Sequence record: PP886230
DNA length: 64,000 nucleotides
From: Escherichia phage vB_EcoM_E9.1
Strand: one strand, 5' to 3'
Below the pieces are notes generated by a model. The model was given only the letters and a program-made list of their open reading frames with translations. It made no database searches and was not told the origin of the DNA. The translations under genes were made by a program, and so were the position numbers. Shown one piece after another: positions 29,404-60,750 of the stretch (position 1 is the first letter of the stretch; each line of letters starts with the position of its first letter).

Positions 29404-29474
29404 AATTCCCTCCTTATTCATTATACTATATTTAATACAAATAAGAAAGCCAGTATCAAGTACTGGCCTATATT
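29404..29474 (-). promoter_or_regulatory. cassette spacer: hairpin, -10 TATAAT, RBS
   Basis: same conserved spacer. Confidence 0.55.
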
Positions 29475-30212: not shown

Positions 30213-30283
30213 ACTTCCTCCTTTATTCATTATACTATATTTAATACAAATAAGAAAGCCAGTACAAAGTACTGGCTAAATTA
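30213..30283 (-). promoter_or_regulatory. cassette spacer: hairpin, -10 TATAAT, RBS
   Basis: same conserved spacer. Confidence 0.55.
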
Positions 30284-31474
30284 TTACAATTGTCTAGGTG
30301 TATCCAGAACATATCTATTTGTACTAGGACCACCATCATCATACGTTCCGGTTGAATATATATTTTTCATATCAGCAGTTAGAAAAGTACGATACGAACC
30401 GCGATATATTTTTATTTTATCATACATAGAATATGATATTTCTGCTGGCATTGGACATATAGTAAATCTACCAATAGTAACATTAGAACCAACACCCAAC
30501 GAACCAGCATAACTACTCGCATTTAAACCAGTTGCATATACACCAGTACTCGTAACTAGTATACTAGATTGTGTTGGGTATCCTGTATGAATTGAATACA
30601 AAGTTCCAGTTGGTAATGTCGTACTATTGCTCCCTAATACAGCAATTGCCGAACTGGTTGTGGTATTGTTACCCCATGCACCATTACTCGCTAAACCACC
30701 AACTAGAAACTGACGTGCACCAGTACTTGGATTCTCAACCAAAGCACTGACTGCACCACTTGAGCATCCAGTGTATTGTAACGTTTTTGTGTATGTTGTA
30801 CTTGGTTTATATAAAGTATATTCATTAAATGGTGTCCATGTGGTACTGGTACTTATACCTGACGTACCACCACCAATATATAAATTATTTTGTGTATCAA
30901 AAAACATTACACAGTTATTTGTTGACAGTATTTGTGCAATATCAACATTAGGCGTGACAGCTTTTACAAATGATCCATCTGTTATTTGTTGAGTACTACC
31001 AGTACCATCAGCGAATTGTCTAGCCCCACTCCAACCAGTACTCCATATTGTATTATTATCCATTAATACCGTAAACCACGTAGTACCTCCATACATCTGT
31101 TTAATTGAAGTACTTGAACTTTGCGTGTACAAATTTTCAATATATTGGTTATAACTTAAAAACGTAGTAGTACTAGTTGGTAAACCAACATGATCACCAT
31201 ATCCACAATAAAAATAATTTGAGTCATTATCTTTTACTAATAAAGTTCCTTGTGTAACCCAGCAATCGTTAACGTTTTCTCTAATTAATGTCCATGATTT
31301 TAATGCAGTGTTGTTTCCCCTACCAAATTTCCCAAAACTATTATTCCCACGTGCATATAGTTGACCATCCGTATACAGAACAACAACATCTAAATCAGTT
31401 GGGATTATTTTCTTAATTTGAAGTGGTACTGGGGCAATATTCCCATAATTCATCATTCTTGCAAAAGGTAACAT
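30284..31474 (-). CDS. leader-tagged RCC1-like beta-propeller protein
   Basis: leader MLPFARMMNYGNIAP; own spacer with hairpin and promoter. Confidence 0.7.
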   Translation of the reverse strand: MLPFARMMNYGNIAPVPLQIKKIIPTDLDVVVLYTDGQLYARGNNSFGKFGRGNNTALKSWTLIRENVNDCWVTQGTLLVKDNDSNYFYCGYGDHVGLPTSTTTFLSYNQYIENLYTQSSSTSIKQMYGGTTWFTVLMDNNTIWSTGWSGARQFADGTGSTQQITDGSFVKAVTPNVDIAQILSTNNCVMFFDTQNNLYIGGGTSGISTSTTWTPFNEYTLYKPSTTYTKTLQYTGCSSGAVSALVENPSTGARQFLVGGLASNGAWGNNTTTSSAIAVLGSNSTTLPTGTLYSIHTGYPTQSSILVTSTGVYATGLNASSYAGSLGVGSNVTIGRFTICPMPAEISYSMYDKIKIYRGSYRTFLTADMKNIYSTGTYDDGGPSTNRYVLDTPRQL

Positions 31475-31545
31475 AAATTCCTCCTTTATTCATTATACTA
31501 TATTTAATACAAATAAGAAAGCCAGTACAGTGTACTGGCATTAAA
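31475..31545 (-). promoter_or_regulatory. cassette spacer: hairpin, -10 TATAAT, RBS
   Basis: same conserved spacer. Confidence 0.55.
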
Positions 31546-32694
31546 TCATTGTATAAATGACATATCAACTTCTGTATAACTAAGAATGTTTTGTCCAGCA
31601 ATTCCCCCCATTACTACCATAGCATACCCACAATAATATAATTTCTCAGTGTCCGTAAGTATAAGTGAACCAGATGGAGTGCGTACCAAATTACACGAAC
31701 TATTAAACGAAGTATACGAAGGAGTATATGAGTACTGATTAATATTATTACCAACACCTAATTGACCAAATCCATTCGACCCAGATGCGTATAGAACTTC
31801 ATCACCTTTAGCTATATGTGATGCCATGTTACTAACACACGTATATAGAGTATAAACTCCCGAACTCAATAATGTCGGAGTTTTGTATTGTATATCGGTG
31901 GATGAAGAAGTACCACCTGTGCCAAATTCGTTCCCGTATTGTGCACCGAACTGTTTACCACAAGCGTACAAATTATTATCCGATTTAATAAAAAATGTAC
32001 TTTGATAACTTACATCAAAATCTATAACATCCGAAGAAATCATCGTCACCCCAGTAATAGAAGTTTGATTACCTGTACCTAACTGATAGTAATAGTTAAA
32101 ACCACAACCCCATAAAGTATTATCTTCTTTTAGGTATATGTTACCAACTGCCTTTTTAACCGAAGTTATAGTATCTACCCTTTTGAATGTGTTAAAAGAA
32201 TTAATGTTTGTACCATCACCAAATGATGATAGGTTCGAGTTATTGTTAACTCCACAACAATACAACGTACCATCGTTTGTTATCAAATTCACCTTCATAT
32301 CATTAAAACTACTCATGTATTTTATATCAGAAACATTAATACCACCTGATGTTATCCACGTAGTACAGTCCGTCCACAAAGTTTTTGTATCAGTTACACC
32401 AGTGAATGCCTTCGTGTTACCCGTGATAAAAACTTTTCCAGTACCTTTCTCTTCATACAATTGACAACTACTACTGTTATCTTCCAATAGAACTCGTTTA
32501 ACATTCTCTGCACAAAGAATAAATTTACTCGATGCTACACCTGTTCCAGTACCCCAATTCGTCGCAGAAGATGCATACAACTTATTAGTATAAGTATCAT
32601 GGAGATACATAGAATCACTTGAATATATTTTAAAACGCCTATCCTTACCAGGGGCAATATTCCCATAATTCATCATTCTTGCAAAAGGTAACAT
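31546..32694 (-). CDS. leader-tagged RCC1-like beta-propeller protein
   Basis: leader MLPFARMMNYGNIAP; GSNGFGQLGVGNN motif. Confidence 0.7.
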   Translation of the reverse strand: MLPFARMMNYGNIAPGKDRRFKIYSSDSMYLHDTYTNKLYASSATNWGTGTGVASSKFILCAENVKRVLLEDNSSSCQLYEEKGTGKVFITGNTKAFTGVTDTKTLWTDCTTWITSGGINVSDIKYMSSFNDMKVNLITNDGTLYCCGVNNNSNLSSFGDGTNINSFNTFKRVDTITSVKKAVGNIYLKEDNTLWGCGFNYYYQLGTGNQTSITGVTMISSDVIDFDVSYQSTFFIKSDNNLYACGKQFGAQYGNEFGTGGTSSSTDIQYKTPTLLSSGVYTLYTCVSNMASHIAKGDEVLYASGSNGFGQLGVGNNINQYSYTPSYTSFNSSCNLVRTPSGSLILTDTEKLYYCGYAMVVMGGIAGQNILSYTEVDMSFIQ

Positions 32695-32765
32695 ATTTCC
32701 CTCCTTTATTCATTATACTATATTTAATACAAATAAGAAAGCCAGTACAGTGTACTGGCATTATA
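32695..32765 (-). promoter_or_regulatory. cassette spacer: hairpin, -10 TATAAT, RBS
   Basis: same conserved spacer. Confidence 0.55.
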
Positions 32766-33905
32766 TTATTTCCACGGTAGAAGTGAATCAGGAACCCTTG
32801 TTGGTACAGTAGTTGAAGACATTCCAGTAAGATTGGGTACACCACATGTGTATAAATTATTATATTCGTCAACTAACATCGTATAAGAATAGCTCTTACA
32901 AAAACTACTAAGATTACTACCTTCTAATGCAGTAAGATCCATTTCAGCGAATGATGTTATATACATATCAGTTGTACCAATACCACATTGACCATTTGAA
33001 TTAAGGCCACATGAAAATAACTTATTATTATTATTAATTATACAGGATGGTCCGGTAAGGTTTGTCCCAAGCTCACCCACCAACTCCACTTCTCCTTGGA
33101 ATGATAAATTTGGAATTAATGTACTCATTGGGGCTACTGACCTATTTCCTGTACCTGCTTGTCCATAGTCGTTAATAGATGCAACTTTAACATTACCATC
33201 ATTAAGAAATATATAAGAAGTTTCATTTGTATTGACTGCTTTAATTGCATTACTAATCGAAGTATCTTGTGTAAATGTGAGCAAGTTTTGTGTCGTCGTT
33301 CCTGATACAAACGTTCTACCTGCATACCAATATGAACCATCATTTAGTACTAATCCAGTACTATATATTGCACAACCAGCACTGATAACATTTTCTATTG
33401 TACTATAGGTGAATCGTGAAACGCTTGAAGTTGATCCATTCCCAAAAACACCACCAGTACCAGCACCACAGTAGAACCACTTTCCATTTTTTAAAAATAC
33501 ACGCATACACGAAGATATCACAACACTATCAATATCATCTGCACTGACACCGAAATCAGTAAAGTTCTGTGTTATATCAACCCAAACGCCGTTAGTGTTT
33601 GAAGATAGTATTGGAATAACAGTACGTCTACCAGTGTACCAAATAGTACCATCTTTCTTTATAGCAATTGTTCCTTGTACCCCACCCCAATATCGTGTAA
33701 CATTTGAGTTGACAAGAGTCCATTCAGTTGAAGAGTCCAATGAACCATTACCACTTTGTCCATATGCTGAAGAACCAAACCAATATAGATTGCCATTTGT
33801 GTGTAAATAAAATTTGGCATCAGCAGAACATTGTAACCTGTTTTTAGGTAGAATCAGTTCAGGTGCGATATTCCCGTACTTAACCATTCTTGCAAAAGGT
33901 AACAT
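32766..33905 (-). CDS. leader-tagged RCC1-like beta-propeller protein
   Basis: leader MLPFARMVKYGNIAP; GLNSNGQCGIG motif; start trimmed from track ORF 32766-34067. Confidence 0.7.
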   Translation of the reverse strand: MLPFARMVKYGNIAPELILPKNRLQCSADAKFYLHTNGNLYWFGSSAYGQSGNGSLDSSTEWTLVNSNVTRYWGGVQGTIAIKKDGTIWYTGRRTVIPILSSNTNGVWVDITQNFTDFGVSADDIDSVVISSCMRVFLKNGKWFYCGAGTGGVFGNGSTSSVSRFTYSTIENVISAGCAIYSTGLVLNDGSYWYAGRTFVSGTTTQNLLTFTQDTSISNAIKAVNTNETSYIFLNDGNVKVASINDYGQAGTGNRSVAPMSTLIPNLSFQGEVELVGELGTNLTGPSCIINNNNKLFSCGLNSNGQCGIGTTDMYITSFAEMDLTALEGSNLSSFCKSYSYTMLVDEYNNLYTCGVPNLTGMSSTTVPTRVPDSLLPWK

Positions 33906-33975
33906 ATTCCCTCCTTTATTTGTTATACTATATTTAATACAAATAAGAAAGCCAGTACAGTGTACTGGCATTATG
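33906..33975 (-). promoter_or_regulatory. cassette spacer: hairpin, -10 TATAAT, RBS
   Basis: same conserved spacer. Confidence 0.55.
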
Positions 33976-35085
33976 TTATTTTGGTAAATCAATTTTAGTA
34001 AAGACTGCAACATCCTCGATTGCACCTGGAATGGCGTAATACGATCCAGTACTATACACATCTCCATTTTTGGTTAATATCGATGTCAAACCATCACTAA
34101 AAAGAACATCCCTAATCTCACTAACTTCAACGGGTAATTGTAAATTGGTAGCACTATATATAGCACCAGTTTGAGAATTGTTTAATCCCAAACCACGGTT
34201 CGCCCCAACACCCTTCTGATATGTACTAGTAATTACCATTTGTGTAGCAGTATTTAAGGCAGGTGAATTCGTCATAAACAATGGAGAACTATTAGGCAAA
34301 GTACTTACAGGAACTGCACGGAATGTAGTCGTACCTGAACTAAGAAAGTTTGGAGTTTGACCACATACGAAATATGATGTACCATTATAGTAATTTAATG
34401 CATTACCACCAATGGCTGCATCGATTACACCAGAACTACGCAATCCCCAAGTGTTAATTTGTGTTTGGTTCCCCGTACCATGCTGCCCACTACTATTCCA
34501 TCCAGAACTATATAGCTTATTATCTAATGTAAGATACATACTATCATTCGCATTGGTCATTACTTTACGAACGTTCGTAGCACATTGAGTTAATGTGTAA
34601 ATTGATGAGGAACCAATACCCAAAGAACCACGATATCCATTATCTCCTGCACCATAGAGTACTGAATTAGTGCTAAGTACAAATATTAAACCATTTGTAC
34701 ATACAATATTAGCAATTTCACTTACTGGTATAGCATTGGTAAACCAATTAGTTCTTTCAACTAATACAGTACTGTAAGAAGTAGTTGTAGAAGATGAGAA
34801 CCAGTACGTTTGACCTGATGTCCATATCGTATTATCATTTTTAATAATAACAAGTGTACGATCACCCACGAAAAAATTAGAAACATCTGCACTTACTAAT
34901 GTCCACGAAGACACCGTGTTGGTATTACCATTTCCAGATTCACCACCTTGATTTCTACCTATGTAATATAAATCATGTGAATCAGTCAATAAGAATTGGC
35001 CTTGGGTAGAAGCACCAACTTTAATTATTTTTTTAGGACCAGGGACAATATTTCCATACCTAATCATTCTTCCAAAAGGTAACAT
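33976..35085 (-). CDS. leader-tagged RCC1-like beta-propeller protein
   Basis: leader MLPFGRMIRYGNIVP; GWNSSGQHGTGNQT motif; start trimmed. Confidence 0.7.
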   Translation of the reverse strand: MLPFGRMIRYGNIVPGPKKIIKVGASTQGQFLLTDSHDLYYIGRNQGGESGNGNTNTVSSWTLVSADVSNFFVGDRTLVIIKNDNTIWTSGQTYWFSSSTTTSYSTVLVERTNWFTNAIPVSEIANIVCTNGLIFVLSTNSVLYGAGDNGYRGSLGIGSSSIYTLTQCATNVRKVMTNANDSMYLTLDNKLYSSGWNSSGQHGTGNQTQINTWGLRSSGVIDAAIGGNALNYYNGTSYFVCGQTPNFLSSGTTTFRAVPVSTLPNSSPLFMTNSPALNTATQMVITSTYQKGVGANRGLGLNNSQTGAIYSATNLQLPVEVSEIRDVLFSDGLTSILTKNGDVYSTGSYYAIPGAIEDVAVFTKIDLPK

Positions 35086-35093
35086 ATTCCCTC

Positions 35094-36296
35094 CTATTGT
35101 TGCCATAACTGCGTTGGCATTAATGTTAGTGTAGTAATACTATAAGTGCCATCTGGCAATCTACCACCATTTCCATTCCAGCCACCACATGCATATAATT
35201 TATAATCTTTAGTAATTATTATGGTTCTGCTCCAATCTTTAGATGCCATAAGAACATTGTCATAACCACCACTTATTGCACTAAGATTAAAAATATTCCA
35301 AGTTCTAACTAATGTATTAGTTCCATTACCTTCTTGACCATATGAGTTAGCACCACTACTTCTAACATATGGTGCGTATTGTGCCATAGGTGCACCAATT
35401 GATGCATTTCCCATATTACTTGGACAAATAAAAGTACTGTACTTACTTACATCAACCGTGACCGATGTGTTCCTAATTGGTGTTAGCTGATTTACCGATG
35501 TAGTCGTACCATTACCAGCTTGTCCAGAACTGTTAGCCCCGCTATAATATACAGACCCACCAGTAGTAAACCACCAAGTAACATCGTATGTAGTACTAAT
35601 ATGTTCTACATTACTAATCACGAATTTGTTCAAATATACAACAGAACTACCACCACATCCACTTTCACCAAAGTTATCCTTACCACAAAACCATGCATCT
35701 TTATTTGATTTGATATAGTGCGTTCCTTGTAATGAACATGCCATATGTGTAACTTCACCCATATTAGTCATAACTGTGAGTGTAGGGATGGAATTTTTAT
35801 TCCCAGAGCCACATTCACCATTAGTATTTCTTCCACACGCAATTACTCTACCATCGGTTAATAATATTCTAGTACTTTCACCTATATATACACTCTTGAT
35901 CATATTAGCCATAACACCTATTTTATTAAATGCAACAGTAACATCAGTCCATGTTGTCAAATAACCATTAACAGGTGTTGCATCTCCATAATCAGAAAAT
36001 GCACCCACAGACCCAGTGTAGTATATTTTATTATCCAAATCAATCATCAATGAACCTTGAACACCAAGCCAAAAGGCTGCACAGTTCCTTGCAAGTACTG
36101 TAAATGACGAAACTGCTGCTGAATTCCCAAGACCAAATTGATAAAAGTTATTACTACCATAACCATATAAAGTATTAGTTGGGTTATGGAGATACATACA
36201 GTTTGTATAATGTTGTTGTAAAACATCTGAGAACTCTACAGGTTCTGGACCTGGTGCAATATTTGCGTACTTAACCATTCTTCCAAAAGGTAACAT
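35094..36296 (-). CDS. leader-tagged RCC1-like beta-propeller protein
   Basis: leader MLPFGRMVKYANIAP; GANSSGQAGNG motif; stop close to next start. Confidence 0.7.
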   Translation of the reverse strand: MLPFGRMVKYANIAPGPEPVEFSDVLQQHYTNCMYLHNPTNTLYGYGSNNFYQFGLGNSAAVSSFTVLARNCAAFWLGVQGSLMIDLDNKIYYTGSVGAFSDYGDATPVNGYLTTWTDVTVAFNKIGVMANMIKSVYIGESTRILLTDGRVIACGRNTNGECGSGNKNSIPTLTVMTNMGEVTHMACSLQGTHYIKSNKDAWFCGKDNFGESGCGGSSVVYLNKFVISNVEHISTTYDVTWWFTTGGSVYYSGANSSGQAGNGTTTSVNQLTPIRNTSVTVDVSKYSTFICPSNMGNASIGAPMAQYAPYVRSSGANSYGQEGNGTNTLVRTWNIFNLSAISGGYDNVLMASKDWSRTIIITKDYKLYACGGWNGNGGRLPDGTYSITTLTLMPTQLWQQ

Positions 36297-36367
36297 ATTT
36301 CCCTCCTTTATTCATTATACTATATTTAATACAAAAAGAAATGCCAGTATCAAGTACTGGCATAATA
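36297..36367 (-). promoter_or_regulatory. cassette spacer: hairpin, -10 TATAAT, RBS
   Basis: same conserved spacer. Confidence 0.55.
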
Positions 36368-37546
36368 TTATCGGTTAAATTTAAAATCTGTTATGTGTGT
36401 CCATGTATGATTTAATGGGGTACTCATTGGTGTAAAGCCAGCAGGGTCTGACAAAGCTGTACCACGTGCGTACATAAATTGATTGCCAGTACAATCCATT
36501 ATAGCATAAGAACGTGTTGCTGTGCCACATTTGAACCCAACTGCACTACTTGGGGTCGGTAATACTTCAAATGTAGGTGCATTTGAACTACCACCCCCAT
36601 CTTTTGTTCCAGCTATGTACAGAACTCCATTAGTATCAATGATTAAGTTAGTCCAATATGCTTGTTCTCGACCAGCATAAAAATATGTTAAATCACCGGG
36701 TACAAATGGTAACGTTCCTTTATATATTGTAGTATTAACATTCACTGGTGCACCAGCTACACCCCATGAACTCATATAGTTTCTCCCACTTGAGTAGAAT
36801 GTAGTTCCTTTACCGTAAAGTATTAATGTTGCTTGACTTGTTCGCATTGCATTATATTCAAACTCAGGATCATCAGTAGCGTCCTTAAAAATCTGTGTCC
36901 ATGTTGTTATATTACCAGTAGTCGTAACACCCATTTGATAATAATAATTATCACCAGTAGCATAGAATTCTTTAGGGCCAGTTTGTACAATTGCATTCCC
37001 ATTAGTTAACCAAAAATCTAATGTATTAGTCTTGATCTTGGTTGGTGTGTAATTCGCCACGGTATTTCCTTTTCCGAAATAACCATTAGCGTTATTTCCA
37101 TGACCCCATAAATCACCATTAGTTGTGCGTAGGAATAATGTACCAGTATTGAATCCAACTTTTTCTATAGTACTTATGTCAATACCAACAGTCGTGTACT
37201 TCGTTGTAAAATCTTGAAAAGTACTCCAATAATTAGATGAACCATTAAACATGGTTTGTCTACCAGTGTACTTCACTTTATTATCGTTAGTGATAAGTAA
37301 TGTCCCCCACACTGACGCGAACATTAACTTAACATTTTCCATAACAAAGTATGGCTTACCGTATGCTGACGCGGTAGTGTTTAAACCTAATAGTTGTCCA
37401 TCATTACTACAACCCCATACTTCGCCGTTATCCAAAAGCATCAACATAGTAGGTTTGCCGGATGATACATCCAAAAAGAAATCTTTTGGTGTTGGTACGC
37501 CCGGTGCTTCATTTCCATAATTCAACATTCTTCCAAAAGGTAACAT
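36368..37546 (-). CDS. leader-tagged RCC1-like beta-propeller protein
   Basis: leader MLPFGRMLNYGNEAP. Confidence 0.7.
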   Translation of the reverse strand: MLPFGRMLNYGNEAPGVPTPKDFFLDVSSGKPTMLMLLDNGEVWGCSNDGQLLGLNTTASAYGKPYFVMENVKLMFASVWGTLLITNDNKVKYTGRQTMFNGSSNYWSTFQDFTTKYTTVGIDISTIEKVGFNTGTLFLRTTNGDLWGHGNNANGYFGKGNTVANYTPTKIKTNTLDFWLTNGNAIVQTGPKEFYATGDNYYYQMGVTTTGNITTWTQIFKDATDDPEFEYNAMRTSQATLILYGKGTTFYSSGRNYMSSWGVAGAPVNVNTTIYKGTLPFVPGDLTYFYAGREQAYWTNLIIDTNGVLYIAGTKDGGGSSNAPTFEVLPTPSSAVGFKCGTATRSYAIMDCTGNQFMYARGTALSDPAGFTPMSTPLNHTWTHITDFKFNR

Positions 37547-37615
37547 AGTTCCTCCTTTATCATTATACTATATTTAATACAAATAAGAAAGCCAGTATCA
37601 AGTACTGGCATCGTA
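37547..37615 (-). promoter_or_regulatory. cassette spacer: hairpin, -10 TATAAT, RBS
   Basis: same conserved spacer. Confidence 0.55.
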
Positions 37616-38725
37616 TTACTTGGGTAATGGAATTGTGGTCCATCTATTTGCGGCAACGTCACCTGGTACATATGTAGGACTACCACTTACAGCAATAGTT
37701 TCATTACCATCATATACAACACTGAAGTTTGTGCACGTATACAACGCTGCGGCATCTGGATTGTAATTTTCAAGTGTTAGTGTATTGGTGAACAAATTCA
37801 ATGCAGTAGTTGAGCCGTTTTTACCATATGCACCTGTAGTATATATCTTTCCTTCTGTTGTTGAGTACATATTAACATATGACCCAGATGATGATTTAGC
37901 AATTTTATCTATCTTGCTATCTATTGTTTTAGAGTTAAATTGAAATGGATATACCTGTACGTTAGTATCTAAACCATTTCCCAGTTCCCCATTTAACTGC
38001 CACCCTGTGTGGTACATTCCCGCATTTGTATATGCAAGCGTACTATACGCATTACCACCCATTATTTTAGTGCCAGATAATTTTAAACCAAACGATGTCC
38101 ACTTACCAGTTTCATTTCCTATGGAACCATAAGCACTTGTACCACACGCACGAAGCTCGCCATTTGACGTTAGAAGCACTGTATTATTAACGTTACCAAA
38201 TATATCAATAACCTGATTAGTGCCATTATTCAGTACTGAAGTAAAAGTACTCTGTGAGTAAGTACTACCTGAACCAACAGAACCATTTGTGTTCATACCT
38301 CTTCCATATACAATTTTACCATCAGCACTAACATAGTGCATTGAATCAAAACCAATGGATATCATTTTAATATCAGATATATCTGGAAATGAAGAAGTTA
38401 CATCTACTCCACCTAGTGGAATTGTATTATTTCCTAAACCTAATGAGACATTAGTTCCGTGCATTATAAATTTATCTTCTTTAAAATATAAAATATTATA
38501 TCCACCAGCCCATGCATTATTAACGCCATTTGTAATCAGTACCCATTTATTTTGTGTAGTAGTTCCAGTAATATTTAACTGTTGATAGTTATTGATTCCA
38601 CAACCATATAGCGATCCATCACCATATAGTACATATAAATTATCATATCCTGCAATAACTTTCTTTATTTTTTTGGGTACAGGTGCTACATTCCCATACT
38701 TTAACATTCTTCCAAAAGGTAACAT
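37616..38725 (-). CDS. leader-tagged RCC1-like beta-propeller protein (first cassette)
   Basis: leader MLPFGRMLKYGNVAP; divergent promoter region upstream. Confidence 0.7.
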   Translation of the reverse strand: MLPFGRMLKYGNVAPVPKKIKKVIAGYDNLYVLYGDGSLYGCGINNYQQLNITGTTTQNKWVLITNGVNNAWAGGYNILYFKEDKFIMHGTNVSLGLGNNTIPLGGVDVTSSFPDISDIKMISIGFDSMHYVSADGKIVYGRGMNTNGSVGSGSTYSQSTFTSVLNNGTNQVIDIFGNVNNTVLLTSNGELRACGTSAYGSIGNETGKWTSFGLKLSGTKIMGGNAYSTLAYTNAGMYHTGWQLNGELGNGLDTNVQVYPFQFNSKTIDSKIDKIAKSSSGSYVNMYSTTEGKIYTTGAYGKNGSTTALNLFTNTLTLENYNPDAAALYTCTNFSVVYDGNETIAVSGSPTYVPGDVAANRWTTIPLPK

Positions 38726-38828
38726 TATTTTCTCCTTTATTCATTATATCATATTTACCTCCTAACGAAAACCCTTGACATTCTTTCAGTACTGGTGTAC
38801 TATAGAAGGAATATAAGGAGAACTACAC
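38726..38828. promoter_or_regulatory. divergent promoter region between the two arrays
   Basis: plus strand TTGACA (~38775) - 17 nt - TACTAT then aaggag RBS; minus strand TATAAT plus RBS for first RCC1 cassette. Confidence 0.5.
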
Positions 38829-39056
38829 ATGACAAATACTCTTAAGTACTACCTCAATACTCTAAATGAACTAGAGTACGGGGAATTTCTCGCGGATAGT
38901 TCGTGGCTAATTGAGCTAAAAAATTATAATAGTCCAGGATGCACCCTTATGATGAACAATGCAATTGATACCCTCATTGTGAGTATTTTACACAGCAACA
39001 TCTGCGGGGATAGCAATAAACAATTATCAAAAATCTTAGTACTGCTATCTATATGA
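38829..39056 (+). CDS. small-paralog family member (75 aa)
   Basis: N-term ..KYYLNTL, central NNAIDT, hydrophobic C-term ILVLLSI. Confidence 0.6.
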   Translation: MTNTLKYYLNTLNELEYGEFLADSSWLIELKNYNSPGCTLMMNNAIDTLIVSILHSNICGDSNKQLSKILVLLSI

Positions 39057-39256
39057 ATATCGAACAGTACTACATCGATGCACTACCAACAAAAGGTCTA
39101 CGTGAAAGCCTACTGCATACACAAACTAATTTCAAACACCTCAAACGTAGCCCTAAACTCCTGAACTCGTACAGGAATAATAACATAAGAAATGCTTTAC
39201 AAGGGGTAGAATGTATGCAATACTATTACATCCTTACCCTATTAATCGAGTACTAA
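39053..39256 (+). CDS. small-paralog family member
   Basis: family motifs; start overlaps upstream stop. Confidence 0.6.
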   Translation: MNIEQYYIDALPTKGLRESLLHTQTNFKHLKRSPKLLNSYRNNNIRNALQGVECMQYYYILTLLIEY

Positions 39257-39257
39257 T

Positions 39258-39467
39258 ATGAATACTGAACATAAAGAATTCTACACCAAATACCTTAGCA
39301 ACGAAGAACAATTGTTTCTAAGGAGTGTATCACCTGTAAGTACCAATACTCAATTCGGTAGAGATTGCTTTAATAATTGTATACGTAGTACTCTAGAAGC
39401 AATCGAATGCAATAACAAAAATATTATGTACTCAGGTTTAATAGGACTAATATATTTCTATGAATAA
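39258..39467 (+). CDS. small-paralog family member
   Basis: MNTEHKEFYTKY...FGRDCFNNCI...LIGLIYFYE. Confidence 0.6.
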   Translation: MNTEHKEFYTKYLSNEEQLFLRSVSPVSTNTQFGRDCFNNCIRSTLEAIECNNKNIMYSGLIGLIYFYE

Positions 39468-39654
39468 TCATAAAGATTTCTATTGTAGTAAACTACCCAA
39501 ACAAGAACAGCTATCATTCTCTTTAGCACCACCTATGAGAAAGGATAATCTGTATTATAATTACGATTTCAGGATGGTGACACGTTATGCAATAGAACAT
39601 CAGTTCCCTGAAACTAAGTACCGCTCTATCCTGAACCTCATCTTTAAGTTCTAA
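39460..39654 (+). CDS. small-paralog family member
   Basis: MNNHKDFYCSKL...; overlapping start. Confidence 0.6.
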   Translation: MNNHKDFYCSKLPKQEQLSFSLAPPMRKDNLYYNYDFRMVTRYAIEHQFPETKYRSILNLIFKF

Positions 39655-39706
39655 AAGGTACACCAGGGACCGAGTACTTTAATATAGTAAGGCTAATTAC
39701 ATTATA

Positions 39707-39892
39707 ATGAATCATATAAGCTACTACTACCAACAACTATCCGACAGAGACAAGTACAGTCACAACTCCCATGTGTGGTACTACAAACGCGGCAGTATAA
39801 GAGACAAACAACATTACTTCTGTATTTCTATTAAAGAAGCACTGACAACTAAGTACACGTACCGAGCAGTACTTAAACTTATTGAAATGTAA
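39707..39892 (+). CDS. small-paralog family member
   Basis: C-terminal YRAVLKLIEM. Confidence 0.55.
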   Translation: MNHISYYYQQLSDRDKYSHNSHVWYYKRGSIRDKQHYFCISIKEALTTKYTYRAVLKLIEM

Positions 39893-39902
39893 AGAGAATA
39901 CT

Positions 39903-40085
39903 ATGAACATTGAATTGTACTTAAGTAAATTACAGCCTGGCGATAGATTCATCTACAATAAGTTCGAATTCAACTACAAGAACGGGAGCAACAAATATCG
40001 TCGAGGATACCTATATACAAGCACAAGAGATGCACAAAACGAAAAGTACACATACAGAGAAGTACTTAAACTAATCTCTATTTGA
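39903..40085 (+). CDS. small-paralog family member
   Basis: internal ATG (MNIELYLSKL); C-term YREVLKLISI. Confidence 0.55.
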   Translation: MNIELYLSKLQPGDRFIYNKFEFNYKNGSNKYRRGYLYTSTRDAQNEKYTYREVLKLISI

Positions 40086-40093
40086 GGTAATAT

Positions 40094-40279
40094 ATGAATA
40101 CATTTGAGTACTATACCAATAAACTATCTATGCCTGAAAGATCTCATCTCTATGTGTGGAGAAATGCGTATAAAAGCGGCAATAAACTTATACAAAGAAA
40201 TTCCCTTACAGTGTGTACAAATTTAATTAAAGCAGAGTACCGCACATATATTGAAGTACTCAAACTGATAGCAATATAA
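40094..40279 (+). CDS. small-paralog family member
   Basis: MNTFEYYTNKL...YIEVLKLIAI. Confidence 0.6.
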   Translation: MNTFEYYTNKLSMPERSHLYVWRNAYKSGNKLIQRNSLTVCTNLIKAEYRTYIEVLKLIAI

Positions 40280-40287
40280 GGTACTCT

Positions 40288-40467
40288 ATGCAAGAATTCT
40301 ATATCTATAACCTCCAGCACAAAGATAGATACAACTATAATAAATTCCAAAGGTACTACACAGTCGGGAACAAAAGAGATAAAAAACGTTATCTACTCTC
40401 GTGTACAGTAGAAGCACAAAACGAAAAGTACACGTACAGAGAAGTACTTAAACTAATCTCAATCTAA
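40288..40467 (+). CDS. small-paralog family member (59 aa, not in track)
   Basis: MQEFYIYNLQ...YREVLKLISI; fills gap between neighbours. Confidence 0.5.
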   Translation: MQEFYIYNLQHKDRYNYNKFQRYYTVGNKRDKKRYLLSCTVEAQNEKYTYREVLKLISI

Positions 40468-40474
40468 GGTAGAC

Positions 40475-40663
40475 ATGAACACTTTTGAGTACTACTTCAA
40501 TAAACTAAACCACATAGAACAAAGTATGCACCACACATTTATTCAGAACCATCAATCATCTTCACCTCTAATTAAAAACATATCGATTGAGATTATCACT
40601 ACCCGTGTACAGTCATCTGAACGTTATATGTATATTGATGTACTGAAACTCATCTCTATGTAA
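40475..40663 (+). CDS. small-paralog family member
   Basis: MNTFEYYFNKL...YIDVLKLISM. Confidence 0.6.
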   Translation: MNTFEYYFNKLNHIEQSMHHTFIQNHQSSSPLIKNISIEIITTRVQSSERYMYIDVLKLISM

Positions 40664-40671
40664 GGAATACT

Positions 40672-40851
40672 ATGCAACAATTCTATAGAGAACACATAAG
40701 CATTAAAGACCGTTTCATGTACGACACCTTCGTGAAGTACTACAAACTAGGAACAAAAAGTACTAAAAATATTAATCTCAATAGCTGCATTTATGCTGTA
40801 CTAACACAAGATAATCCCTACAGGGAAATCATTGCCCTGGCATCTATATAA
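40672..40851 (+). CDS. small-paralog family member (59 aa, not in track)
   Basis: MQQFYREHISIKDRF...; fills gap. Confidence 0.45.
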   Translation: MQQFYREHISIKDRFMYDTFVKYYKLGTKSTKNINLNSCIYAVLTQDNPYREIIALASI

Positions 40852-40861
40852 AGGAAACCAA

Positions 40862-41521
40862 ATGAAACTTAATCCACACAGCAAACAATACCTTAAGCAC
40901 TTTAAATACCTCAACAGTATTCAAGCAGAATCTTTTACACCAGCATATACGTATCACCCAAATGTACTAAAGAAACGAAATAAAAAGAAAAAATCCAGAA
41001 ATGTTCTCGTATCTAAGAACCTCAAATCGTACTTGAAGAAAAATAATATAGCTCTTGCTTTTATTAATATCTATAATACTGATTTAAAAGTATTGAGTAC
41101 TAATACCAGCACAAAAGCACTAAAGAATGCATCTATCTATATACACATGGATAATATCCCGTGCACTATAATTCTATCTTTCGGGAATGTATACTTCTTC
41201 GGGAATTGTAATAGCACCCATGATATCAGTACTGCACAATTCCAAATCGGCGATATGTACTGCATGGGTTCAGAAAAAATACACGATAACATGCACTTCT
41301 TCCAAAAGCAACGTACTAACGAAACTGATACAGTACTGCAATTCCTAAAAGAACTACAAAACAAAGAATTAACACCAGAAGAAGAATTCATGTACAGTAC
41401 TGTAATCGATAATCCAGAACTCTATAAAAACGCGTACAATCTAACAAAACATGTACAGGAACTTATCAGTACTGATAAGAAATTTCATCACCTCATTACG
41501 TATATTTCAAACTATGTATAA
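40862..41521 (+). CDS. hypothetical protein (220 aa) embedded in small-paralog operon
   Basis: ATG with aaggaaacc RBS; unrelated to flanking family. Confidence 0.5.
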   Translation: MKLNPHSKQYLKHFKYLNSIQAESFTPAYTYHPNVLKKRNKKKKSRNVLVSKNLKSYLKKNNIALAFINIYNTDLKVLSTNTSTKALKNASIYIHMDNIPCTIILSFGNVYFFGNCNSTHDISTAQFQIGDMYCMGSEKIHDNMHFFQKQRTNETDTVLQFLKELQNKELTPEEEFMYSTVIDNPELYKNAYNLTKHVQELISTDKKFHHLITYISNYV

Positions 41522-41696
41522 AGAATACTACAAAGATAAAATCCCAATGCATCTACAACACCATATACCAAACGTTGCATTGGGTATCAAAGATCACGCA
41601 AAGATAATGTTCCAACAATGTACTAAGTACACGCTCATATACGATGATAATCCATATATGCTGTACTACGTAGTAATGCTAACATTCAGGTACTAA
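41514..41696 (+). CDS. small-paralog family member
   Basis: MYKEYYKDKIPMHLQHHIP...MLTFRY; ATGTATAA overlap. Confidence 0.55.
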   Translation: MYKEYYKDKIPMHLQHHIPNVALGIKDHAKIMFQQCTKYTLIYDDNPYMLYYVVMLTFRY

Positions 41697-41697
41697 T

Positions 41698-41877
41698 ATG
41701 AATACTTATAAAGAATTCTACCTCTCGTACCTTAATTCCGATATAGTAACATCCAATACATTCAGTACTAAAATTATCTATAATGAATTAATGAAAGAAT
41801 GTATTAAAGGTGCTATTAACCCTAAAGATACGTATGACTTGTACTATGCAGTACTAACCCTTGTTTTCACGAAATAA
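41698..41877 (+). CDS. small-paralog family member (59 aa, not in track)
   Basis: MNTYKEFYLSYL...KECIKGAI...LTLVFTK. Confidence 0.5.
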   Translation: MNTYKEFYLSYLNSDIVTSNTFSTKIIYNELMKECIKGAINPKDTYDLYYAVLTLVFTK

Positions 41878-41885
41878 CACATAAT

Positions 41886-42077
41886 ATGAATAACCACATA
41901 GAATACTACATAGAGAAACTCCCAATGTATCTCCAACACCTTGTACCAACAGTACCATTGGGTATAGAAAAAAACTACGAAAAAGACTACTTCATTCAGT
42001 GCACTAAATCCTCGATATATATTGAAGACTATAATCGAGTACTGTATCACATCCTTTTACTAATATATAGGTACTAA
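41886..42077 (+). CDS. small-paralog family member
   Basis: MNNHIEYYIEKLPMYLQHLVP...LLLIYRY. Confidence 0.6.
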   Translation: MNNHIEYYIEKLPMYLQHLVPTVPLGIEKNYEKDYFIQCTKSSIYIEDYNRVLYHILLLIYRY

Positions 42078-42078
42078 T

Positions 42079-42261
42079 ATGCACAAAGAATACTACACAC
42101 AATTTCTCCCCAGCATTTTTGAACACTACGCCAGATACAAAGTCCCTATGGATAACGATTTGGCAGTACTGGGATTCAATAACTGCATAGAACGAAGTAT
42201 AGAAAATAGTAGTAGTTATGACCAGCTATATAACACTATCCTACTTATATTCAGGTACTAA
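42079..42261 (+). CDS. small-paralog family member
   Basis: MHKEYYTQFL...NNCIERSIEN...LLIFRY. Confidence 0.6.
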   Translation: MHKEYYTQFLPSIFEHYARYKVPMDNDLAVLGFNNCIERSIENSSSYDQLYNTILLIFRY

Positions 42262-42262
42262 T

Positions 42263-42451
42263 ATGCATAAAGAATACTACACAAAATATTTCCCAATGTA
42301 CCTCAGTACTAATCTATTAGATAAACCTCGCGGTATCAATGCACAAAACGATAAAGTGTACTTTACTATGTGCACTAAAGCATGTATACTAGATTTTGAC
42401 AGCTATCATCGAGTACTGTATCATACCCTGTACCTAGCTTTCGTATTCTAA
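42263..42451 (+). CDS. small-paralog family member
   Basis: internal ATG (MHKEYYTKYF). Confidence 0.55.
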   Translation: MHKEYYTKYFPMYLSTNLLDKPRGINAQNDKVYFTMCTKACILDFDSYHRVLYHTLYLAFVF

Positions 42452-42460
42452 AAGAACAAT

Positions 42461-42646
42461 ATGCATAAAGAATTCTACTTAAGCCATCTCGATCTAAACT
42501 CCCAAATGCTTATACCACTAATCCCAATAGATATCAAGGATAAGAAAAATACCGAACAATTCATTTACCATACACAGTGTGCGATCACCCCAAATTACAT
42601 TCCATATGAATTGTACTACATTATCGCCCTAATATATAGGTACTAA
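42461..42646 (+). CDS. small-paralog family member
   Basis: MHKEFYLSHL...IALIYRY. Confidence 0.6.
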   Translation: MHKEFYLSHLDLNSQMLIPLIPIDIKDKKNTEQFIYHTQCAITPNYIPYELYYIIALIYRY

Positions 42647-42647
42647 T

Positions 42648-42833
42648 ATGCATAGAGAATACTACACACAATTTGTTAAAGGGAACTACAAATGTGCCGT
42701 ACCCAGAACCCCTTTAAATTCTCATGACCCAAGTACTATATTCTTGTTTAATGACGCAATACGTACAGTACTCAATACTAAAGATGAAGATGTGCAGTAC
42801 GTATTCTTACTATTACTTATATACAGACACTAA
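42648..42833 (+). CDS. small-paralog family member
   Basis: MHREYYTQFV...LLLLIYRH. Confidence 0.6.
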   Translation: MHREYYTQFVKGNYKCAVPRTPLNSHDPSTIFLFNDAIRTVLNTKDEDVQYVFLLLLIYRH

Positions 42834-42838
42834 CTAAT

Positions 42839-43048
42839 ATGAATAAAGAACATAAAGAATTCTACTCCAAATACATAAGCCCCTCAGAACAAATGTTTCT
42901 AAGGACTACTCCACCTTTAAGTACTAATACATTTTTCGGCAGAGTATGCTACAATAATTGTATTCAAATGACTTTAAACGCAAATGAAGATGGTAACAGT
43001 ACTAACCTGTACTCCGGCATCATAGGTATACTATTCCTGTATGAATAA
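42839..43048 (+). CDS. small-paralog family member
   Basis: MNKEHKEFYSKY...FGRVCYNNCIQ; close paralog of 39258. Confidence 0.6.
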   Translation: MNKEHKEFYSKYISPSEQMFLRTTPPLSTNTFFGRVCYNNCIQMTLNANEDGNSTNLYSGIIGILFLYE

Positions 43049-43229
43049 TTACAAAGACTTCTATTTGAATACACTACCTACTGTACTTTCTCTAAGTGCT
43101 CAATGTAAAATCCCCCTGGATAATGCTTACGCCAGATATAGCTATTCCATAACTGTTAATCGATGTATAGAGAATCATTGCAGTACTAACCAGTACTATA
43201 ACATAATCCTACTTATATTCAGGTACTAA
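43041..43229 (+). CDS. small-paralog family member
   Basis: MNNYKDFYLNTL...VNRCIENHC...LLIFRY. Confidence 0.6.
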   Translation: MNNYKDFYLNTLPTVLSLSAQCKIPLDNAYARYSYSITVNRCIENHCSTNQYYNIILLIFRY

Positions 43230-43230
43230 T

Positions 43231-43413
43231 ATGAATAAAGAACATAAAGAATTCTATATACGAAAACTAACATTCGTCCCCGTAAGAATATATAAAGAAT
43301 GCGACCCAAGATTATACCTATGGCACTTCAATGAGTGCATAAAAGATTCTATATACCATAAGAACTATAAAGAACAATTGTGCTCAGTACTAACACTAGT
43401 ACTATCATATTAA
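43231..43413 (+). CDS. small-paralog family member
   Basis: MNKEHKEFYIRKL...FNECIKDSI. Confidence 0.6.
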   Translation: MNKEHKEFYIRKLTFVPVRIYKECDPRLYLWHFNECIKDSIYHKNYKEQLCSVLTLVLSY

Positions 43414-43428
43414 TTAATAGAGAATACT

Positions 43429-43620
43429 ATGTATAAAAACTTCTATATAAGTAAACTAAAAGAAAATGAACAAGTATGGATTAGATCTATAATTCCACTG
43501 GCATTTAATAGATATGCATTTAACAGATGTACCGAGATTGCTATAGACCCTTATAATATTAAAGAGAATGTACAGTATAATCAGTACTACTATATCTTAA
43601 TGCTTATATATAGAAAGTAA
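43429..43620 (+). CDS. small-paralog family member (last)
   Basis: MYKNFYISKL...FNRCTEIAID...LMLIYRK. Confidence 0.6.
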   Translation: MYKNFYISKLKENEQVWIRSIIPLAFNRYAFNRCTEIAIDPYNIKENVQYNQYYYILMLIYRK

Positions 43621-43639
43621 TTAAACACATAGAGACAGG

Positions 43640-43715
43640 GGAAGCTCCTAGTGAACAACCTTTATGTACAGGCGAATTGTTAAAATTCAGCCTGGACAAA
43701 TGCGATCACTAGGAT
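43640..43715 (+). other. long imperfect inverted repeat (possible RNA structure or terminator)
   Basis: ggggaagctcctagtga ... tcactaggattctcccc enclosing an inner caggc/gcctg stem. Confidence 0.4.
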
Positions 43716-44265
43716 TCTCCCCAGGCTAAACCCCGTAATCATAGGTAGTCATAAGTAATCATATATAAACATTTATATGAGCACCGTAGAATCACAGAAT
43801 GATTATATATGATTCAGTACTGATTAGTATAGACAAGATTGCTCAAGAATGCACGGAAATGTGTGTGAATGATTCAGTACTGATATGCCACTAAGTAGGC
43901 AGAGGAAGTCTGCCGTACTTTGTAGTTTCCAAGCTCCTTTTCCATTTTGTAAATTACATCAAATGTAATCAAAAGTAATCACGCAATGATTAGTACTGAA
44001 TTATTACTTTCACCTTAATTACAATTACCCTTTTACCCTTCGGGGTAAAATTCAATTACCCCTTGAGGCTCCAGCAAAAAGTTGGTTAGTACTCCATCCT
44101 AAATCTCGATCCTAAAAATTTTGGAGTACCTATGAAATAAAAGTTGGATCTTCGAAAGTTGAAATTTACGTTGGGACGTTTATGATTTGTGGGATATAAT
44201 GATGTTTGTAGACGGGTAGTTCTCAAGAATATCAGTACTGAATGGTGAAAGAAAGTTATTGACAT

Positions 44266-44296
44266 TATGATTCAGTACTGTATAATGTTTTACATA
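44266..44296 (+). promoter_or_regulatory. sigma70-type promoter with no downstream ORF
   Basis: TTGACA - spacer containing cagtactg - TATAAT, then gttttacat; no ORF over 60 aa for >1 kb. Confidence 0.45.
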
Positions 44297-44599
44297 GAGA
44301 GATGAGTTGCCGCAAACAATTCATTCACTCTACCTCCTGTCGTGAGACAGTACAGAAAGATAGTTCCTCCAATGGGTGGTACATCTTTTTGAACCTCATA
44401 TGAAAATTGTAATAACAGTACTGATATTAACAGAATGGTGTCAGTACTGATTTTAATCTAAAGCATTATGCCACCAGCACAAGCTGGTGGATTCCCTCTA
44501 ACAGTATTCAGTACTACATGATAGTCTTCATCCTCCTAGGGTAACATAGTGAGGGCTATGATGGCAGTACTGAATACTCCCTTTCAAAAGATAGATCTA

Positions 44600-44800
44600 T
44601 GGTATAGTACTGACGGATTTTGGGCGTAGTTACCCTGGATGGATTTTGGACGTAGATATGTCTAGCCCTCCAGAAGTCTGGAAGTAAAGATGGCTATCCA
44701 TCTAGACGGCTAAACGGCTAGATTTCTGGATGGCTAGACGTTTGGACGGCTAAACGGCTAGATGGGTACACGTCTGGAAGTATAGACGGCTAAATCAAAA
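44600..44800. repeat. iteron-like direct repeats
   Basis: gacggctaaacggctagat twice (~44705, ~44745), partial third copy, ctggaagta twice, attttggRcgta repeats. Confidence 0.55.
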
Positions 44801-45410
44801 TTTTATTTTGTTTTTCCAATAGTTCCCCTACCGCGTGGGGATAGTTTCCCCGCAGTATCTGAAGTTAGATTTTTCTGAATCTGGAATCATTATCTTATAA
44901 ACTGGGGGCAATGTCAACGGCCTGGCCGGATATTTTTAAAAATTTTTTCAGTACTGAATTTTGGGCGTAACTATGCACCCGATGGGCTTGAGTCTTTCTC
45001 GACTTGATGGAACTATTATACAGTACTGAAAAAATAAAGCAATACCCTGGAAGCAAAAAAGTTTTAATTAATTTGCTTGCTATCCTGGGCCGGACTATGG
45101 TACTATATTTCAGTACTGAGAAAGTGCGTTTACCTGCTAGGGTGCGGGAGTCTATCCTTTTTTTATATCTTGAATTTTGGACGGATCTTCCCACCCCCTG
45201 GGGTATCCGCTTTCTCGCGTCTATGTAGTAATTATACGCTTTTTCAGGATCAAGTCAATACCTAAAAACAAAATAATTGAAAATAATTTAACGCGTTTAA
45301 ACGGCCCGTAACGCCCTGGATTGTTGGGAGTGGTGCAAATGTATAGCTTAGGTGTATTAATGCGTTAGAATGCGTCTGAGGCCGTTTTATGGGGTGTAGT
45401 AGTGATTTGG

Positions 45411-45503
45411 TTGATTCAGTACTGAATAATAGTACTCCTATATAGAAAGATAGTTCCCCTGGATTGATTCAGTACTGAATAATAGTACTCCTATATAGAA
45501 AGA
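45411..45503. repeat. 40-bp perfect direct repeat x2
   Basis: ttgattcagtactgaataatagtactcctatatagaaaga at ~45411 and ~45464. Confidence 0.7.
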
Positions 45504-45534
45504 AAACTATTTTAAAAGTATTTGTAGAAAGTAC

Positions 45535-45593
45535 TTGCACCGTACTGATAAAAGCGTATAATGTTTTACATCGAGAGCGGGAACACTTCCCGC
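45535..45593 (+). promoter_or_regulatory. PeSL-like cassette: promoter plus 5' stem-loop
   Basis: TTGCAC - 16 nt - TATAAT gttttacatcgaga GCGGGAAcacTTCCCGC. Confidence 0.6.
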
Positions 45594-45617
45594 TACACTT
45601 TAAGAGAGATTAATACG

Positions 45618-53802: not shown

Positions 53803-53862
53803 TTGACAATAGATTATAGTACTGTATAATAGTTTACATCAAGGGGAGAAAAACTTCTCCCC
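53803..53862 (+). promoter_or_regulatory. PeSL-like cassette
   Basis: TTGACA .. gtactgTATAAT .. GGGGAGAAaaacTTCTCCCC. Confidence 0.6.
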
Positions 53863-56538: not shown

Positions 56539-56598
56539 TTGACAATGCAACCCAGTACTGTATAATAGTTTACATGAAGGGGAGAAATGATTCTCCCC
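56539..56598 (+). promoter_or_regulatory. PeSL-like cassette
   Basis: TTGACA .. gtactgTATAAT .. GGGGAGAAatgaTTCTCCCC. Confidence 0.6.
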
Positions 56599-57846: not shown

Positions 57847-57908
57847 TTGACAAAGTATCTTAGTACTGTATAATAGTTTACATCAAGCGAGGGGAATGGT
57901 TCCCCTCC
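57847..57908 (+). promoter_or_regulatory. PeSL-like cassette
   Basis: TTGACA .. gtactgTATAAT .. GAGGGGAAtggTTCCCCTC. Confidence 0.6.
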
Positions 57909-60691: not shown

Positions 60692-60750
60692 TTGACAAAG
60701 TATATCAGTACTGTATAATAGTTTACATCAAGGGGAGAATAGTTCTCCCC
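60692..60750 (+). promoter_or_regulatory. PeSL-like cassette
   Basis: TTGACA .. gtactgTATAAT .. GGGGAGAAtagTTCTCCCC. Confidence 0.6.

Follow-up and report, generated by a model that had tools for sequence, protein, structure and literature searches.

A tandem array of small paralogous genes beside the RCC1-like genes of Asteriusvirus jumbo phages and its possible role as an early bank of small binders

Known early host-takeover clusters of bacteriophages include the host-takeover module of SPO1 and the hyperplastic early regions of T4-type phages. Small inhibitors that act by stoichiometric binding, such as the T4 Dmd antitoxin, T4 AsiA, T7 Gp2 and the anti-CRISPR proteins, are encoded by single-copy genes. 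Tandem families, or "genomic accordions", are known from African swine fever virus (ASFV; MGF110, MGF360 and MGF505) and from poxviruses (K3L amplification), where the link to host antagonism is established. Asteriusvirus phages are jumbo myoviruses of Escherichia coli and Salmonella with a genome size of about 350 kb; for more than 80% of the genes of jumbo phages no function is known, and such phages are being proposed for therapy. Here, we describe a tandem array of 21 small genes and one larger gene (positions 38829 to 43620, + strand) in a 64,000-nucleotide (nt) stretch of the Escherichia phage vB_EcoM_E9.1 genome (sequence record PP886230), hereafter referred to as the window. Our preferred reading, to which we assign a probability of about 45%, is that host RNA polymerase transcribes the array early as one polycistronic operon, that this operon would encode a bank of small soluble four-helix binders of host or competitor proteins, and that gene birth and death shape its evolution.

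The genome of the related phage CBB has its RpoD-like promoters concentrated among short hypothetical open reading frames (ORFs), which the authors of that study suspect to be early host-takeover genes (PMC5259590). The array resembles that suspected early region (CBB_390-546) in its dense small function-less genes and host-sigma-type promoter. With the SPO1, T4 and CBB clusters together, the array also shares poor conservation between relatives and absence from virions. Whereas those clusters hold mostly unrelated genes behind several promoters, the array holds 20 to 21 paralogs of one predicted fold behind one main promoter, and its early timing and any shut-off of the host are presumed. Like the ASFV and poxvirus accordions, it consists of tandem paralogs, evolves faster than the core genome and differs in copy number between close strains, which makes it a tandem multigene family (15 to 23 copies); in contrast to theirs, its adaptive link to host antagonism is hypothetical, and the viruses and hosts differ with no homology between the families. 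Its proteins resemble T4 Dmd and AsiA, T7 Gp2 and the anti-CRISPRs in size range (50 to 90 amino acids), solubility, presumed early expression, lineage restriction and fast evolution, but no sequence or fold similarity to these inhibitors was detected, and a roughly 20-member array stands against single-copy genes. In the literature, neither a description of the array as such nor an Asteriusvirus transcriptome or functional study was found. We place the array among the tandem multigene families of viruses and the early accessory gene clusters of phages.

Layout and family relationships of the array

The array region is 99.6% identical to that of phage SHEFM2K and 99.5% identical to that of phage JP4, and approximately 30 more Asteriusvirus records align to it at 80 to 99% identity. 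Judged by this similarity, the window is part of an Asteriusvirus jumbo coliphage genome (121Q/PBECO4/phAPEC6-type, Rak2-like). Related Asteriusvirus records label the small genes only as hypothetical proteins. The array comprises 22 ATG-started genes on the + strand, of which 21 encode proteins of 59 to 75 amino acids and one, g11, encodes a protein of 219 amino acids. A sequence-only reading of the window had proposed an operon of 21 consecutive small genes here. All 21 were recovered as exact ORFs, but they are not consecutive, as the unrelated g11 (40862 to 41521) splits the tenth from the eleventh, and only three (g08, g10 and g13, each of 59 amino acids) rather than six fall below 60 amino acids, with four of exactly 60. 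The tight packing noted in that reading was found, although the stop and start codons, described there as mostly overlapping, truly overlap (by 4 or 8 nt) at only four of the 21 junctions. Six others are spaced by 1 nt (TAAtATG), ten by 5 to 15 nt and one by 52 nt. A purine-rich Shine-Dalgarno element precedes nearly all gene starts. In five of the six cases with a 1-nt spacer, the AGG codon in the C-terminal ...R-Y-stop of the preceding gene supplies this element (AGG TAC TAA T ATG), so that part of the conserved C terminus has a double use. The GC content of the array is 33 to 34%. Its coding strand (38001 to 44000) has a GC skew of −0.15 to −0.20 and an AT skew of up to 0.21, whereas GC skew is positive in the remaining + strand genes of the window; the skew of the array arises because the family is rich in Tyr, Asn, Lys, Ile and Leu and poor in Gly (11% Tyr, 1.9% Gly).

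All-against-all BLAST comparison separated the small genes into two blocks, with within-block E values of 1e−3 to 1e−31. Subfamily A comprises g05 to g10, with the C terminus ...YTYREVLKLISI, and subfamily B comprises g03, g04 and g12 to g22, with the C terminus ...LLIYRY. Starting from g14 alone, a hidden Markov model (HMM) was iterated against 496 six-frame small ORFs (from the window and nine related loci) and converged on 164 members. It recovered 20 of the 21 small genes of the window at E values of ≤3.5e−12 and g01 at 5e−3, and the best ORF outside the array scored 0.41. The single small-protein family of the sequence-only reading was thus confirmed for 20 of the 21 genes, with g01 borderline, and low-complexity AT-rich coding alone was ruled out as the source of the similarity because the best ORF outside the array scores only 0.41. 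The two subfamilies are colinear over their full length (profile-profile comparison, P = 8.5e−4), and divergent members from phages JNE01 and Turkey5 match the HMMs of both. Family-wide signatures are an N-terminal E-[FY]-Y-x3-[LI], in which Tyr8 is invariant, and a C-terminal [YL]-x2-[IV]-L-x-L-[IA]. The terminal motifs described earlier therefore extend across the family, whereas the central cysteine motif, F-x-x-C-(I/T), is confined to subfamily B.

PHROG 11711, a group without function, was matched by 13 of the 21 genes, all of subfamily B (best E value, 1.6e−27; for g14, E value of 1e−25 with residues 3 to 63 on profile positions 1 to 62 of 62). It includes neither subfamily A nor g01 and g02, for which no PHROG match was found, and does not record the tandem operon. 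PHROG 11711 and PHROG 29152, the latter matched by g11, are orthologous groups built from PBECO4/121Q-type phages. Existing catalogs thus list the family as a PHROG without function and as hypothetical proteins, and the link between subfamilies A and B, based on profile similarity, appears to be made here for the first time.

The array opens with two divergent members that overlap by 4 nt, namely, g01 (38829 to 39056; 75 amino acids), orthologs of which occur in most genomes, and g02 (39053 to 39256; 67 amino acids; iterated HMM E value, 1.3e−14). They are followed by the subfamily B genes g03 (39258 to 39467; 69 amino acids) and g04 (39460 to 39654; 64 amino acids), which overlap by 8 nt and form a two-gene unit. 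This unit is duplicated as g19 (42839 to 43048; 69 amino acids) and g20 (43041 to 43229; 62 amino acids), also with an 8-nt overlap (BLAST of g03 to g19; E value, 1e−31). The only long gap of the array, 52 nt, lies upstream of the first subfamily A gene, g05 (39707 to 39892; 61 amino acids). The remainder of subfamily A, assigned by BLAST and profile, consists of g06 (39903 to 40085; 60 amino acids), g07 (40094 to 40279; 61 amino acids), g08 (40288 to 40467; 59 amino acids), g09 (40475 to 40663; 62 amino acids) and g10 (40672 to 40851; 59 amino acids). Of these, g07 and g09 are of the MNTFEYY type, and g07 is the best bridge from A to B in the window (subfamily B HMM E value, 1.4e−4). Beyond g11, subfamily B resumes with g12 (41514 to 41696; 60 amino acids), which overlaps g11 by 8 nt, and continues with g13 (41698 to 41877; 59 amino acids), g14 (41886 to 42077; 63 amino acids), g15 (42079 to 42261; 60 amino acids), g16 (42263 to 42451; 62 amino acids), g17 (42461 to 42646; 61 amino acids) and g18 (42648 to 42833; 61 amino acids). 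After the g19-g20 unit, g21 (43231 to 43413; 60 amino acids) and g22 (43429 to 43620; 63 amino acids) complete the array.

The basic protein encoded by g11 lies outside the small family, and its gene is constant at the boundary between subfamilies A and B. It matched PHROG 29152, likewise without function, over its full length (E value, 2.7e−113), and homologs were found only in Asteriusvirus-like contigs. No Pfam match and no profile similarity to the small family were detected. Its C-terminal part was considered as a fused family domain and rejected (profile-profile probability, 1%), and its AlphaFold prediction was unreliable, with a predicted local distance difference test (pLDDT) score of 37.

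Expression signals and predicted fold

Upstream of g01, a sigma70-type promoter was identified by promoter scan and from the sequence at 38775 to 38803 (+ strand). It consists of TTGACA, a 17-nt spacer with TCAGTACTG and TACTAT, and is followed by an AAGGAG Shine-Dalgarno element before the g01 start. All eight aligned genomes, the divergent JNE01 and Turkey5 among them, retain TTGACA, AAGGAG and a TAnnAT −10 element at the 17-nt spacing, whereas the sequence of the spacer varies. The small-gene cluster thus lies behind a host-sigma consensus promoter, as does an early host-takeover module. The TCAGTACTG of the spacer is characteristic of a class of strong promoters, TTGACA-N10-AGTACTG-TATAAT. 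A promoter and terminator scan found no terminator-like site on the + strand within 38829 to 43620. Within g16, a promoter-like site was located at 42396 to 42424 (TTGACA-N17-TATCAT; 11 of 12 matches), with AGTACTG in its spacer.

Directly after the last stop codon lies a stable RNA-type hairpin (43638 to 43722, + strand), with a minimum free energy of −39.7 kcal/mol (z = −4.1 versus shuffles). All relatives share the sequence of the element (43638 to 43735, …TGTTAAAATTCAGCCTGGACAAATGCGATCACTAGGATTCTCCCCAGGCTAAACCCCGTAA), including those whose array proteins are only 30 to 59% identical. Rfam returned no match in the 38- to 47-kb region. The hairpin is possibly the 3′ end of the operon transcript, or an element that processes or stabilizes it.

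AlphaFold2, run with a 57-sequence alignment, predicted a confident four-helix fold for g14 (pLDDT, 92.1; predicted template modeling score, 0.77), with helices at residues 3 to 10, 14 to 17, 30 to 45 and 49 to 60. No specific structural relatives of this predicted fold were detected. Across the family, the conserved columns are almost all hydrophobic, and entropy at polar positions is mostly above 2 and reaches 3.5 bits. Net charge ranges from −3 to +6 and the isoelectric point (pI) from 4.7 to 9.6, and neither a transmembrane segment nor a signal-like N terminus was identified in the small proteins. These features fit a binder-like anatomy with a constant hydrophobic core and a hypervariable surface.

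Distribution, selection and copy-number dynamics

Among 50,697 phage records, tblastn matches to subfamily A and to subfamily B were confined to one and the same set of 35 Asteriusvirus records. A word-indexed profile search of 5.8 billion proteins returned 52 clusters, and an exhaustive HMM search of 1.84 billion representatives returned 31 matches, all of 44 to 69 amino acids and all obvious members. Searches for distant relatives returned only clear family members from Asteriusvirus-like contigs. The family is therefore kept beyond this genome and, by these searches, is restricted to the Asteriusvirus lineage. A divergent metagenomic relative has the same architecture, with RCC1-like genes on the − strand, a small-gene array that includes a 222-amino-acid gene, and a gap of approximately 2 kb. 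No Pfam match passed the curated gathering thresholds; the best, of one member to EB1 (PF03271; E value, 4.3e−4), was taken as chance. NCBIfam gave no significant match (best E value, 0.03), and a profile search of the PDB gave none at an E value of ≤1. PADLOC returned a single chance-level match (E value, 0.0024) among the 21 members, with no dedicated anti-defense library searched.

Orthologs of the array genes in five other genomes are intact ORFs. Their pooled ratio of nonsynonymous to synonymous differences per site (pN/pS) is 0.40, and differences at the three codon positions number 205, 165 and 286, respectively. With 121Q as the comparison genome, the array has a pN/pS of 0.38 and the RCC1-like genes one of 0.26; the values are 0.12 across 53 flanking genes and 0.08 across the remaining genes of ≤90 amino acids. 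The array genes are under purifying but relaxed selection, with a constraint about three times weaker than that of their neighbors. By column, pN/pS is 0.29 in the hydrophobic core and 0.41 in the remainder, a small difference. No pN/pS above 1 was found, even outside the core. The sequence-only reading had taken the extreme expansion of a tiny protein as a sign of a diversifying function. The expansion is real and lineage specific, with a conserved core, a hypervariable surface and a copy number that varies between genomes, but diversifying selection was not borne out at a pN/pS of approximately 0.4.

Copy number ranges from 15 to 23 per genome. Gene order is anchored by g01 to g05, g10, g11 and g12 through to g22, and the cassettes g06 to g09, g13 and g19-g20 occur in some genomes and are missing from others. 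BAU.Micro_ELP-22 carries two extra small-gene copies, and in the JNE01/Turkey5 clade the small proteins are only 30 to 59% identical to those of the window. The duplicated unit g03-g04/g19-g20 coincides with a 246-nt direct repeat (39252 to 39497 and 42833 to 43078; 74% identity), and g06-g07/g08-g09 represents a second duplicated two-gene unit. Obligatory two-gene (heterodimer) units were considered and rejected because, though duplications often take pairs, genomes without g06 to g09 retain only one of the two subtypes. The best-conserved DNA of the array lies at gene junctions (for example, CTA.TATAT.CAGGTACTAATATGCATAAAGAATACTAC), a pattern that unequal recombination would both use and homogenize. 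Comparison of the genomes showed that the family evolves by gene birth and death, with one- or two-gene units duplicated or lost.

Proposed function, alternatives and flanking features

The reading of the array as an early bank of binders builds directly on the genes, their family relationship and selection regime, copy-number variation, promoter conservation and lineage restriction; its timing, binding mechanism and targets we infer. Host sigma70 RNA polymerase would transcribe the whole array from the one conserved promoter at 38775 to 38803, and the array would therefore most likely be expressed early. Translation would be coupled from gene to gene via stop and start codons that overlap or are spaced by 1 to 15 nt. 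Each gene would yield a soluble cytoplasmic protein of approximately 60 residues, with four short helices, a conserved core and a variable surface. The paralogs may act as stoichiometric binders (inhibitors or modulators) of host proteins or of proteins of competing genetic elements, such as host-takeover or anti-defense targets, and different paralogs would cover different targets or target variants. Gain or loss of one- or two-gene units, probably by unequal recombination at the conserved junctions, would then give rise to the 15 to 23 copies. A bank of host-modulating or anti-defense peptides had been among the suggestions of the sequence-only reading; it fits the conserved sigma70-type promoter and the polycistronic layout.

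Several points weigh against this interpretation. The strict adjacency to the RCC1-like genes, kept across the genus and in the divergent metagenomic relative, is unaccounted for. Early timing would follow solely from a consensus promoter of 10/12 quality and from analogy. Profile and fold searches gave no similarity to known anti-defense, antitoxin or regulator families, and no expression, translation or interaction data for any member were found in the literature. An arms race is not demonstrated because pN/pS stays below 1 even outside the core, and the pN/pS pattern is equally compatible with simple relaxed constraint.

That last point leads to an explanation in which the array is largely dispensable duplicated material, a once-useful small gene that was amplified through recombination-prone junctions and whose copies drift under weak constraint without distinct functions. 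This we consider rather unlikely. It would account for a pN/pS of three to four times the value of the flanking genes, the closeness of core and non-core values, the viability of phages that lack whole cassettes, and the junctions being the most conserved DNA of the array. Drift of this kind is difficult to reconcile with a pN/pS clearly below 1, an excess of differences at third codon positions, and an intact ORF, start codon and Shine-Dalgarno element in every copy examined. Nor would it be expected of a family that is present in all 35 Asteriusvirus records and the metagenomic relative, that numbers 15 or more copies in every isolate genome counted, and whose fold is predicted with high confidence from sequence covariation. 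A more radical form, in which the ORFs are not real genes and their similarity stems from AT-rich low-complexity sequence or a DNA-level repeat, is effectively refuted by computation. The AT-rich genome (33 to 34% GC in the array) and the repeated junction DNA speak for it, but the family HMM recruited no other six-frame ORF (best 0.41 versus ≤3.5e−12), purifying selection and codon-position bias are evident, the g14 model reaches a pLDDT of 92, and even in JNE01, where identity falls to 30%, the proteins are still colinear and share the hydrophobic pattern.

The adjacency speaks for an alternative that we regard as improbable, namely, that the small proteins serve the RCC1-like propellers as dedicated partners, whether as assembly chaperones, adaptors or inhibitors, with different paralogs for different propellers. 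Twelve RCC1-like genes (24611 to 38725, − strand) lie divergently upstream of the array. This divergent adjacency recurs in every Asteriusvirus examined and in the metagenomic relative, both expansions are specific to the genus, and both arrays are hypervariable with raised pN/pS (0.38 and 0.26). However, the numbers of RCC1-like and small genes are neither 1:1 nor correlated (12 and 21 in the window, 12 and 16 in 121Q, 11 and 23 in BAU.Micro_ELP-22, and 9 and 15 in JNE01). In JNE01 the two propellers beside the array are 83 and 96% identical to those of the window against 30 to 59% for the small genes, and in BAU.Micro_ELP-22 the propeller set differs from that of the window while the small-gene set is nearly identical. 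The two arrays lie on opposite strands under different control, eight of the 12 RCC1-like genes being units of their own with a terminator hairpin (GCCAGTACTTGATACTGGC and a T-run) followed by a box without a −35 element (AAATATAGTATAATGAATAAAGGAGG). In phAPEC6 virions, mass spectrometry identified eight RCC1-like proteins and none of the small proteins among 62 virion proteins (PMC7247149). Neither co-expression nor stoichiometric or co-evolutionary pairing with the RCC1-like genes was thus apparent, given opposite strands, different promoter types and uncorrelated counts, and the cognate partners, chaperones or inhibitors of the propellers put forward in the sequence-only reading are disfavored. 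If the small proteins served the propellers instead, this would help explain why these phages carry nine to 12 RCC1-like structural proteins. It is slightly more improbable still that the small proteins act on the phage itself, as transcription-timing, anti-sigma or appropriator-like, or DNA-binding proteins tied to the AGTACT motif. Small size, helical structure and, in many members, a basic character (pI up to 9.6) speak for such a role, as does the position of the array beside the promoter-dense region at 43.6 to 45.6 kb; AGTACT is 13-fold overrepresented and sits in promoter spacers, and therefore some factor probably reads it. Yet readers of one invariant motif, or binders of one polymerase, would not be expected to form a set of 21 paralogs whose surfaces are hypervariable and whose charges run from −3 to +6, and presence or absence of many copies is tolerated.

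A bank of binders aimed at the host or at competitors may also be taken a step further. The array could be a phage "immunity bank" of approximately 20 diversified small helical proteins, each neutralizing a different abortive-infection, toxin or defense effector of the host or a rival-phage protein, with accordion-like gain and loss of cassettes helping to set the host range of Asteriusvirus. This extension is speculative, and we hold it to be unlikely in its full form. If true, bacteriophages would have their own equivalent of the ASFV and poxvirus multigene families, built on a fold without known relatives. If the proteins are host-directed inhibitors more generally, the array would provide a ready-made collection of small proteins that bind proteins or defense systems of E. 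coli and Salmonella, and a rare case in a bacterial virus of adaptation through multigene-family expansion. The system is compact and experimentally tractable, with approximately 20 paralogs of one predicted mini-fold and natural presence/absence variation across 35 sequenced phages.

Downstream of the array, positions 43621 to 45600 form an ORF-poor stretch of approximately 2 kb that is unannotated in 121Q. It contains many TCAGTACTG sites, consensus promoters on both strands and the minimum of the cumulative GC skew, as well as a degenerate tandem repeat at 44703 to 44794 (period 16/40, GGCTAGACGTCTGGAT-like), and it may be a regulatory or origin region. A repeated cassette, TTGACA-N10-AGTACTG-TATAAT-(a/g)ttttACAT..GAGGGGAG, with 12 of 12 consensus hexamer positions, was found in at least 12 copies before short + strand ORFs. 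Examples between 44259 and 62700 include those at 44259 to 44286, 53803 to 53830, 56539 to 56566, 57847 to 57874 and 60692 to 60719. The cassette looks like the early-promoter class of the phage, and the 44- to 64-kb region like its early region.

The palindrome AGTACT occurs 291 times in the window against 22 expected, is dense at 38 to 64 kb and is the only overrepresented palindromic hexamer. TCAGTACTG occurs 58 times against 0.55 expected and lies in promoter spacers, terminator stems and coding sequence. Several palindromic hexamers are missing from the window altogether, namely, CCATGG (10.2 expected), ACCGGT (8.3 expected), AGGCCT (5.9 expected) and AGCGCT (4.2 expected), which looks like avoidance of restriction sites.

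Within the RCC1-like region, a near-identical intergenic cassette precedes eight of the 12 genes (25508 to 38810) and consists of a terminator hairpin, GCCAGTAC(N4-5)GTACTGGC and a T-run, then a promoter-like box without a −35 element, TTAAATATAGTATAATGAATAAAGGAGG, then ATG. At the RCC1-like gene adjoining the array (37616 to 38725), the promoter-like box is present and the hairpin is absent. The RCC1-like paralogs of the window are 25 to 45% identical to one another, and their set and order differ among the window, 121Q, BAU.Micro_ELP-22 and JNE01. A short member, R05 (29475 to 30230), is locally 88 to 92% identical to several of the other paralogs, a pattern that points to recombination or to a module in common.

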